DNA from: a virus
Lineage: Duplodnaviria > Heunggongvirae > Uroviricota > Caudoviricetes
Length of the DNA stretch: 7,735 nucleotides
Strand: one strand, 5' to 3'
Virus record (IMG/VR): IMGVR_UViG_2713896783_000029
Shown here: one piece after another, positions 312 to 1,233 of the stretch
How positions within the stretch are numbered: the first letter of the stretch is position 1
Layout: the number at the start of each line of letters is the position of its first letter
Notes under the pieces: model-generated
What the model was told of the DNA's origin: nothing
Databases searched by the model: none
The model's input: the letters and a program-made list of their open reading frames with translations, nothing else
Translations under genes and position numbers: made by a program

Positions 312-1007
312 ATGAAAGAGATGATTTCTGTCGATCATGAAATATCCATGAGTAGTCTGGATTTTCTGAATAACATTATTAATCCAGCCCGGGCAGAAGC
401 CGGAGAAGTCCCTCATGAACCGCGTAAGTTTCTTGCAAAAATTGAGGATGAGCTAGAGCTTGATGGAACCGGAAAAAAATTCCGGTTAAACAATAACCAG
501 ACAAGAACGGCATACTATGATCTGGATTTTGACCAGATGATGCTCGTTGGCATGAGGGAGTCAAAGGCCGTTCGTCGTTCTGTGCTGGCAAGACTCAAAG
601 CGATGCATGGTATTCAGATCCCCCGGACTTTACCTGAGGCGTTGCGATTTGCGGCAAAACTGGCTGAACAGAAAGCAGTGCTGGAAAATCAACTGGCAAT
701 AGCAGCGCCGAAGGCTGAATTTGTTGATAACTATGTTGAAGCATCTGGTCTGATGGGATTCCGGGAAGTTGCTAAGTTACTCGGTATCAAAGAAACCGAT
801 TTCCGGCTGTTTTTGTTGGAGAACGGAATAATGTATCGCCTCGCTGGAAAAATGACGCCTTACTCGCATCACCTGGATGCGGGGCGGTTTAGCGTGAAAA
901 CGGGCGAGGCGGGCAATGGTCATGCTTTTACGCAGGTTAAATTCACCCCAAAAGGTGTTCAGTGGATTGCTGGTCTGCTTGCTGCATGGAGAGCTACCGC
1001 AGCATGA
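312..1007 (+). CDS. Phage antirepressor-like protein, C-terminal KilA-C/ANT domain, N-terminal Rha/AntA-like region
   Basis: 231-aa ORF with SD aaaggaa 7-13 nt upstream of ATG 312. The C-terminal half (EFVDNYVEASGLMGFREVAKLLGIKETDFRLFLLENGIMYR...QVKFTPKGVQWIAGLL) matches the ANT/KilA-C signature as I recall it. Position between endolysin and Rz mirrors ant-like genes I recall in Stx-type lambdoid prophages. Confidence 0.8.
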   Translation: MKEMISVDHEISMSSLDFLNNIINPARAEAGEVPHEPRKFLAKIEDELELDGTGKKFRLNNNQTRTAYYDLDFDQMMLVGMRESKAVRRSVLARLKAMHGIQIPRTLPEALRFAAKLAEQKAVLENQLAIAAPKAEFVDNYVEASGLMGFREVAKLLGIKETDFRLFLLENGIMYRLAGKMTPYSHHLDAGRFSVKTGEAGNGHAFTQVKFTPKGVQWIAGLLAAWRATAA

Positions 1008-1099
1008 AGATGATAAAAACGGACTGGAAATTTTTGCTGGTCTGGCTGATTCCGTTTTTATGGGTGGTTGCCCGGTTAATTACTGCTATTAAGGGGTAA
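1004..1099 (+). CDS. Tiny hydrophobic ORF (31 aa, single predicted TM helix), below the ORF-track size cutoff
   Basis: ATG 1004 overlaps the ant stop (ATGA at 1004-1007). Translation MKMIKTDWKFLLVWLIPFLWVVARLITAIKG has a charged N-terminus, about 14 hydrophobic residues, then a basic tail. Its stop TAA 1097-1099 lies 2 nt before the next ATG. No homolog recalled. Confidence 0.4.
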   Translation: MKMIKTDWKFLLVWLIPFLWVVARLITAIKG

Positions 1100-1101
1100 A
1101 G

Positions 1102-1233
1102 ATGTCAGACAAACTCATAATGCTGGCGAAGGGCCTTTGTGTAATCGTCGGTATTTCATTTTCACTAATGCTGGTTGTTCTTTTTCTTTCCATAACCTGG
1201 ATGGCGTTGACTTCGGCAGGGCTGGTGGGGTGA
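1102..1233 (+). CDS. Small membrane protein (43 aa, one long hydrophobic segment)
   Basis: SD AAGGGG at 1091-1096, ATG 1102, stop TGA 1231-1233. Translation MSDKLIMLAKGLCVIVGISFSLMLVVLFLSITWMALTSAGLVG. Tightly coupled to the preceding tiny ORF and sits just upstream of Rz. Confidence 0.45.
   Translation: MSDKLIMLAKGLCVIVGISFSLMLVVLFLSITWMALTSAGLVG

Follow-up and report, generated by a model that had tools for sequence, protein, structure and literature searches.

What do two open reading frames (ORFs) of only 31 and 43 amino acids contribute to a phage when they lie between its endolysin gene and its spanin gene Rz? The question is posed by a 7,735-nucleotide stretch of virus record IMGVR_UViG_2713896783_000029 (the window, by which the whole analysed stretch is meant), which is the late region of a lambdoid, Shiga toxin 1 (Stx1)-phage-like prophage of E. 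coli. An initial annotation, made from the sequence alone, had described the two ORFs, here called pep1 and pep2, as tandem membrane-peptide genes translationally coupled to the antirepressor-like gene ant, and had listed lysis timing, membrane depolarisation and superinfection exclusion among their possible roles. From comparisons with related prophages we conclude that both are conserved, probably translated genes and not chance ORFs, and we propose, with a probability of about 0.4, that their products are non-essential intramembrane modulators of lysis. The features on which the argument turns are the following.

1004..1099, plus strand: pep1, 31 amino acids, MKMIKTDWKFLLVWLIPFLWVVARLITAIKG; predicted single-pass membrane peptide of the phrog_6632 family, with its N-terminus apparently replaced
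1102..1233, plus strand: pep2, 43 amino acids; predicted single-pass membrane peptide, phrog_4906, core motif G17-I-S19-F-S21
3..38, plus strand: 3′ end of the endolysin gene R (stop codon 36-38), a P21-type lysozyme whose hydrophobic N-terminal segment is rich in Ala/Gly
312..1007, plus strand: ant, a KilAC-domain antirepressor-like gene within the lysis cassette (PF03374, E=2.7e-28; phrog_63)
1230..1606, plus strand: Rz (i-spanin), broken by two 50-N gaps; ATG at 1245, in-frame GTG at 1230

pep1 and pep2 as genes

The ant gene ends GCA GCA TGA, with its stop codon at 1005-1007, and the ATG of pep1 occupies 1004-1006, so that stop and start share an ATGA overlap; the purine run GGAGAG (989-994) lies 9 nt 5′ of this start. 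The pep1 stop codon (TAA, 1097-1099) is separated from the pep2 ATG at 1102 by a spacer of 2 nt (1100-1101), and AAGGGG at 1091-1096, 5 nt upstream, provides the strong Shine-Dalgarno (SD) sequence that had been claimed for pep2. The pep2 stop codon (TGA, 1231-1233) is in turn overlapped by a GTG (1230-1232) in the Rz frame. Re-reading of the sequence agreed with the initial annotation on both ORFs, their coordinates, the overlap and the 2-nt spacing, and its assignment of one long hydrophobic helix to each peptide was borne out as well: the best 19-residue Kyte-Doolittle windows score 2.26 for pep1 and 2.77 for pep2, and AlphaFold2 models each peptide as one helix, spanning residues 8-30 of pep1 at a predicted local distance difference test (pLDDT) score of 83 and residues 2-39 of pep2 at a pLDDT of 89.

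The first 2.6 kb of the window hold 33 ORFs of at least 25 amino acids, and length alone is uninformative. The case for pep1 and pep2 stands on the reading frame, start signals and protein sequence, all of which are kept in related prophages, where the initial annotation had proposed looking for conservation. pep2 matches phrog_4906 (E=6.6e-24), its residues 1-43 aligning with profile positions 7-49 of 49, and a 49-amino-acid form from phage P13374 matches the same profile at E=3.9e-32. For phrog_6632, whose profile has 45 positions, the pep1 of the window aligns with positions 20-43 (E=1.1e-4), while a longer pep1 from relatives that lack ant (locus L004) matches at E=1.3e-12 over positions 2-43; judged by these alignments, pep1 of the window is a partial, N-terminally replaced member of the family, spanning the C-terminal two thirds of the profile. 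pep2 is not new to databases, since the PGAP annotation of E. coli already calls it (hypothetical protein WP_001280923), and both peptides belong to existing PHROG families without an assigned function; pep1 is seldom annotated and accounts for only 4 protein clusters, one of them named ‘membrane protein’.

Both peptides are widespread. The window-type region was present in 1093 of 5426 complete E. coli genomes, and the pep2 type of phage 933W in 643 E. coli genomes, with a median of 4 copies each, and in 260 phage records, mostly of Stx phages. In 933W itself (NC_000924), a 49-amino-acid pep2 homologue, MMGWLMISDKLITLVKSLCVLVGISFLVMLVAIFFSTAWRVLTLSGLVG, lies in the unannotated 153 nt between ant and Rz (record positions 27420-27569; 3421-3570 of the fetched locus, L179) and is absent from the RefSeq annotation.

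Selection was analysed in 169 fetched loci by parsimony counts of changes. For pep1, 35.8 synonymous and 21.2 non-synonymous changes give a ratio of non-synonymous to synonymous rates (dN/dS) of 0.17 (p=8.6e-11), whereas the control frames give 0.8 and 1.5; the synonymous-substitution bias that the initial annotation had suggested seeking is present in this gene. The corresponding ratio for pep2, 0.64 (p=0.01), is not decisive, and dN/dS was rejected as proof for this gene because a control frame gives a similar ratio. Other evidence speaks for the pep2 frame. No stop codon occurs in its 26 nucleotide alleles, which embody about 142 inferred substitutions, where 4.8 would be expected (P=0.008); its length is constant at 43-44 codons, and the one indel found near it is 3 nt long, in frame, and located in the N-terminal extension of the 933W-type form. 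An SD-like purine run precedes pep2 at the right spacing in nearly all of its upstream contexts, whether pep1, a further micro-ORF termed pep3 or a second type of ant lies there. In the most divergent copy (L169), ant, pep1 and pep2 all show a synonymous divergence per site (pS) of about 0.5 (0.56 for pep1), and the ratio of non-synonymous to synonymous divergence (pN/pS) against this copy is 0.05 for ant, 0.24 for pep1 and 0.47 for pep2. These patterns point to clear purifying selection on pep1 and suggest a loose or partly diversifying constraint on pep2.

A shuffled array between endolysin and spanin

The description of two tandem membrane ORFs is accurate as far as it goes, since both exist, but in relatives they are part of an array that draws on up to four small-peptide families (pep1 to pep4), and the R-Rz interval carries these micro-ORFs in shuffled combinations:

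R-pep1long-pep2-pep3-pep4-Rz: about 50 loci
R-ant-pep1-pep2-Rz (the window type): 44 loci
R-pep3-pep2-Rz: 36 loci
R-ant2-pep2-Rz (also the 933W type): 11 loci
R-pep2-Rz: 5 loci
pep3/pep4 region, outside the window: L004 961-1174 and L002 3337-3550

The constant member in the sampled loci is pep2, which adjoins Rz in nearly all 169; the loci were fetched with pep2 or pep1 queries, and the constancy of pep2 holds for a sample drawn in this way. The additional micro-ORFs, pep3 (38-48 amino acids) and pep4 (28 amino acids, MSAELIRAMAFAIRIVAIAVLVWAIRWW), lie 3′ of pep2 in many relatives. They look paralogous by sequence, as 0 of 3000 shuffles reached the score of their alignment with each other. 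pep1 and pep3 share the ungapped pattern W..V...P.L...A.L..A.K (4 of 3000 shuffles) and occupy the same slot before pep2, and pep3 resembles the second transmembrane domain (TMD2) of the P21-type holin (KWVAVGVAVSPMLYGL versus QWVAIGV-LGSLLFGL), with a score that 4 of 3000 shuffles reach. Many comparisons were made, and both the kinship among the micro-ORF families and the likeness of pep3 to TMD2 are suggestive only.

The arrangement in phages that lack ant bears on the coupling between ant and pep1. In these phages pep1 is about 45 amino acids long (MIDFSKLIRELRLMISQLPNWKF...) and has its own TTG start with GGAGG 5 nt upstream. The ant gene was inserted into an older micro-ORF array, where it took the place of the 5′ end of pep1 and left the 31-amino-acid form; the coupling of ant to pep1 is therefore a by-product of this event. 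Homologues of ant in Pseudomonas and Vibrio phages are full-length and lie in early regions without such peptides, and ant was rejected as a functional partner on this ground. The coupling claimed by the initial annotation is thus real in so far as the ATGA overlap exists, but the link is secondary, because the peptides occur without ant and ant occurs elsewhere without the peptides.

Other genes have entered the same interval. A DNA methyltransferase gene lies between pep2 and Rz in one E. coli prophage (L008, 2644-3579), and the R-Rz interval is therefore a recurrent insertion site for accessory genes. In the phiP27-like locus L169, a 51-amino-acid lipoprotein with the lipobox LVGC and three further Cys residues is encoded 3′ of pep2 (3167-3322), and no Rz was called near it; the lipoprotein may be o-spanin-like or have another role. 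In the Hafnia phage Pocitis76 (L176), an ant homologue of 72% identity follows Rz/Rz1 and is itself followed (2749-3153) by a gene for an unrelated 134-amino-acid, four-helix membrane protein annotated as ‘putative antiholin’, in which no similarity to pep1-pep4 was detectable. The idea that the array is a broken multi-helix protein found no support, there being no similarity either to this Hafnia protein or to the Rz anchor. A longer Rz, for which the Rz frame that remains open across pep2 might have argued, was rejected as a composition effect: hydrophobic codons carry T at the second position, which by our reasoning prevents stop codons in the shifted frame.

Database searches place pep2 in a narrow group of phages. 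Searches of Pfam, NCBIfam and PADLOC returned no match for pep1-pep4. An exhaustive profile search with pep2 against 1.84 billion cluster representatives gave only 28 matches, all of them close relatives or fragments, so that pep2 constitutes an orphan family of E. coli-type lambdoid phages; the GTDB species-representative genomes scanned contained no homologue. No paper was found that contains the peptide sequences or their RefSeq accessions, and these ORFs are unmentioned in the passages covered of a comparison of Stx phages that treats S, R, Rz and ant (PMC8136144).

Expression and a possible role in lysis

The initial annotation had placed the two ORFs within the lysis cassette, with holin and endolysin upstream of the window, and this placement is upheld, as pep1 and pep2 lie between endolysin and Rz. 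The C-terminal sequence ESALACWGIDR* encoded at 3-38 recurs in a lysozyme (locus L005; PF00959) from a genome that is identical to the window over 990-1257, and holin and endolysin therefore lie upstream. In E. coli E2863, whose sequence agrees with the window at every position over 990-1257, the genes upstream encode a class II holin of the P21 type (PF04971), a protein with DUF1327, and a lysozyme that starts with an Ala/Gly-rich hydrophobic segment. The common Stx-phage endolysins are described, in the comparison cited above, as R21-like signal-arrest-release (SAR) endolysins (PMC8136144).

Expression of the micro-ORFs appears to be tied to late transcription. Consensus scans, which are weak evidence, found no plus-strand promoter-like site near pep1 and pep2 and no promoter- or terminator-like site on either strand near 1004-1233. 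Neither strand yielded an antisense promoter, an antisense terminator or a known antitoxin RNA, and an Rfam search of the whole window at E up to 1 gave only a chance snoRNA match elsewhere. One structural feature precedes the array:

144..170, plus strand: terminator-like hairpin between R and ant; the segment 120-200 folds at -26.5 kcal/mol (z=-4.0; 0 of 200 shuffled sequences reach this stability)

This hairpin escaped the consensus scan for terminators. Relatives without ant have a textbook intrinsic terminator with a 15-bp stem at the equivalent position (L004 625-657), about 30 nt 5′ of the first micro-ORF, which leaves no room for a promoter. A terminator-like hairpin inside a lysis cassette is unusual, and its position after the endolysin gene implies that the genes downstream depend on antitermination. 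Because neither an independent promoter nor an antisense RNA was found, expression of the peptides should depend on the late transcript, and the only transcription expected to reach the micro-ORFs is the late, Q-modified and terminator-resistant kind that also covers S, R and Rz. Stop and start codons that overlap or lie 1-2 nt apart along most of the array fit translational coupling.

On the reading that we prefer, pep1 and pep2 would be made only when Q-antiterminated late transcription passes S and R, and their translation would be chained from ant through pep1 and pep2 to Rz by the overlapping or 2-nt-spaced stop and start codons. Each peptide would enter the inner membrane as one helix, pep2 probably in an N-in/C-out orientation that leaves the charged N-terminal residues MSDKLIMLAK on the cytoplasmic side. 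The peptides would probably act by helix-helix packing with the transmembrane helices of other lysis proteins, for which pinholin TMD2, the membrane-tethering segment of the endolysin and the Rz anchor are candidates, and the contact face of pep2 may be the conserved small-residue motif G17xS19xS21. The outcome would be a tuning of the timing or sharpness of lysis, with lysis itself not dependent on the peptides. The best-conserved part of pep2 is indeed GISFS, its invariant or nearly invariant columns being V14, G17 and S19-V25, and divergent alleles keep the small residues (ACISFSATLAA); small-residue faces are typical of helix-helix packing, as in GxxxG-like motifs. A late, lysis-linked role is further supported by the position of the peptides in S-R-...-Rz cassettes with a P21-type holin and lysozyme, and the evidence slightly favours a role in the late or lysis phase over one in the lysogen.

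Several observations weigh against a function in lysis. In L169 the ant-pep1-pep2 block is part of an unrelated cassette with two canonical holins, a soluble GH108 endolysin and no adjacent Rz, so that any role of the peptides is not specific to pinholin/SAR systems or to Rz. The dN/dS of pep2 does not discriminate it from its stop-filled control frame, at 0.60, and its pN/pS reaches 1.47 in one lineage pair. In 6 loci the aligned pep1 segment is cut short by a stop at codon 23, and frameshifted variants of pep2, although rare, are present as well; the existence of such alleles in nature means that neither peptide is essential. Phages lambda and 21 are not known to carry an ORF in the R-Rz interval. 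Finally, the supplements of a ribosome-profiling study of the Sakai strain, which come from uninduced cultures of enterohaemorrhagic E. coli, contain no matching sequence (PMC5597208).

Small membrane accessory proteins are known from comparable lysis systems, as two phages show. Lcc6 (SO_4795), a transmembrane protein of 65 amino acids, is required for lysis by the pinholin and SAR endolysin of the Shewanella phage LambdaSo (bioRxiv 10.1101/2024.01.23.576932). Compared by description, Lcc6 resembles pep1 and pep2 in being a very small single-pass phage membrane protein without a known domain, and it acts beside a pinholin, a SAR endolysin and Rz/Rz1. It differs from them in consisting of an N-terminal helix and a 43-amino-acid cytoplasmic tail, whereas pep1 and pep2 are nearly all helix; in the location of its gene, which lies close to xis and at a distance from the lysis genes, not inside the cassette; and in being essential for phage-induced lysis and membrane depolarisation, whereas pep1 and pep2 are dispensable, judging from their natural nonsense alleles. 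The releasin of phage Mu (gp25) is another membrane-tethered accessory protein of a SAR-endolysin lysis system, described as longer and acting in a phage without a holin; it contains DUF2730, in contrast to pep1 and pep2, which have no Pfam match at E up to 1.

By the features compared, pep1 and pep2 are not releasin, nor are they holins, dual-start antiholins, spanins, type I toxins or classical morons. Holins and antiholins (S21 68/71, lambda S105/S107, T4 RI and P1 LydB) are likewise small, late, inner-membrane proteins of lysis cassettes, and each of the two peptides is predicted to have the at least one transmembrane helix that is expected of a holin. The charged cytoplasmic C-terminal tail of holins is absent from both, however, their C-termini being ...AIKG and ...TSAGLVG; no Pfam holin family matched either peptide, and the cassette already has a P21-type holin. 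Dual-start antiholins (S107, S21 71) are extended isoforms of the holin, whereas pep1 and pep2 are separate ORFs with R and ant between them and S. Spanins carry a periplasmic coiled coil or a lipobox; pep1 and pep2 have neither an extramembrane domain nor a lipobox, and Rz/Rz1 are encoded downstream.

If the peptides do not modulate lysis, they might still be late membrane peptides that act on something else, for example by inhibiting a host membrane protein (a protease, a transporter, or a division or stress sensor) or by preventing superinfection or re-adsorption in the late phase. The movement of the ant-pep1-pep2 block between unrelated cassettes, one of which lacks an adjacent Rz and a SAR endolysin, would suit such a role, as would the use of the R-Rz interval as a general insertion site (ant, the second ant type, the DNA methyltransferase), and the fast amino-acid change of pep2, seen in the lineage pair mentioned above, would fit an arms-race target. 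With pep2 adjoining Rz in nearly all sampled loci, no match to defence-system models and no result that points to a specific host target, we regard this as rather unlikely. An interpretation confined mainly to pep2, and less likely to hold for pep1, is that the ORF is kept for nucleotide reasons, as a translated spacer by which ribosomes are brought to Rz and in which the ribosome-binding site of Rz lies, the peptide having little or no function. Its last codons, GGG/GTG GGG TGA, do lie where the Rz ribosome-binding site is expected, its stop codon overlaps the Rz start or lies within about 12 nt of it in every architecture with an adjacent Rz, and its protein-level constraint is weak, a control frame looking no different. 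Against this, the invariant block lies in the middle of the peptide and not at the 3′ end, the hydrophobic single-helix character and the length of 43-44 codons persist at a pS of about 0.5, and pep2 is kept where pep3 or a lipoprotein gene, and not Rz, comes next; we consider the spacer interpretation improbable.

Expression from the prophage is harder still to reconcile with the arrangement of the locus. The late region of phages is a known home of lysogenic-conversion (moron) genes, a lipoprotein gene in the bor position lies close downstream (1945-2271), and small hydrophobic prophage peptides with effects on the host are known; on this reading pep1 and pep2 would be, for example, exclusion or membrane-protective peptides. 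Morons have a flanking promoter and terminator, however, whereas this array has a terminator upstream and no plus-strand promoter-like site in the scans; in relatives without ant a strong terminator, with no promoter room, stands before the array, the coupled stop/start spacing ties the peptides to the surrounding late genes, and PADLOC gave no match. A moron function is accordingly quite improbable in our estimate. The depolarising peptides listed by the initial annotation would correspond to a killer pair of the type I toxin kind, and the size and hydrophobicity of pep1 and pep2 do resemble those of Hok, TisB, Ldr or Ibs, which are of similar length and form a single hydrophobic helix. Type I toxins have their own promoter and an antisense RNA, for neither of which any trace was found here, and they are self-contained cassettes, whereas pep1 and pep2 are embedded in a polycistronic late operon; we give this explanation very little credence.

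A broader form of the lysis-modulator proposal would treat pep1-pep4 together as a new class of ‘micro’ lysis regulators, bare transmembrane helices whose genes are shuffled and translationally chained in the interval that separates endolysin from spanin. Inside the membrane they might act as decoys or chaperones, with the pore helix of the pinholin, the SAR anchor of the endolysin or the anchor of Rz as their target, and so determine when lysis, and with it the release of Shiga toxin, takes place in the majority of Stx phages, 933W among them. This extension draws on the likeness of pep3 to TMD2 of S21 and on the GxSxS face of pep2, and we put it forward as a doubtful speculation.

Neighbouring genes and possible consequences for Stx phages

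The window comes from a scaffolded draft and contains three gaps of 50 N (1258-1307, 1521-1570 and 2529-2578). The first two break Rz and Rz1. The third looks like an unmerged contig overlap, because it is flanked on both sides by a duplicated 22-nt sequence, CTTTATGTTCAAGGGCGATATT. NCBI PGAP annotation places the Rz ATG at 1245, and the intact Rz copy in L005 matches PF03245 (E=1.9e-49). In relatives, Rz1 is a 61-amino-acid ORF (MRELKMKLCVLMLPLVVSACGSTPP...) at a matching offset. Downstream of Rz lie genes for a TonB_C lipoprotein, an HNH endonuclease, terminase, a protease and capsid proteins.

1502..1520, plus strand: start of Rz1 (o-spanin lipoprotein, MRELKM...), embedded in Rz and cut by the gap at 1521
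1945-2271: TonB_C-domain lipoprotein, lipobox LVMGC (PF03544, E=5e-15)

The TonB_C lipoprotein gene fills the place held by bor in lambda and 933W and is a candidate lysogenic-conversion gene; PADLOC returned no match for it or for ant. Within 120 nt directly 5′ of the small terminase gene (3175-3296) there are five copies of ATGTTAAC, in both orientations, against 0.14 expected by chance; they are probably repeats in the cos/pac region that terminase recognises.

The sequences of pep1 and pep2 are already in databases and no unusual mechanism has been shown for them; it is their prevalence in Stx phages that gives them interest. pep2 is among the most widespread genes of these cassettes, yet 933W, as annotated in RefSeq, does not have it. 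Should the peptides prove inert, the result would still be an annotation correction and an example of micro-ORF arrays that persist by linkage. The peptides also bear on whether holin, endolysin and spanin suffice as an account of lysis, and Lcc6 and releasin suggest that they do not. Because Shiga toxin leaves the cell through phage-mediated lysis, peptides that tune the timing of lysis in Stx phages would bear on both toxin release and phage yield.

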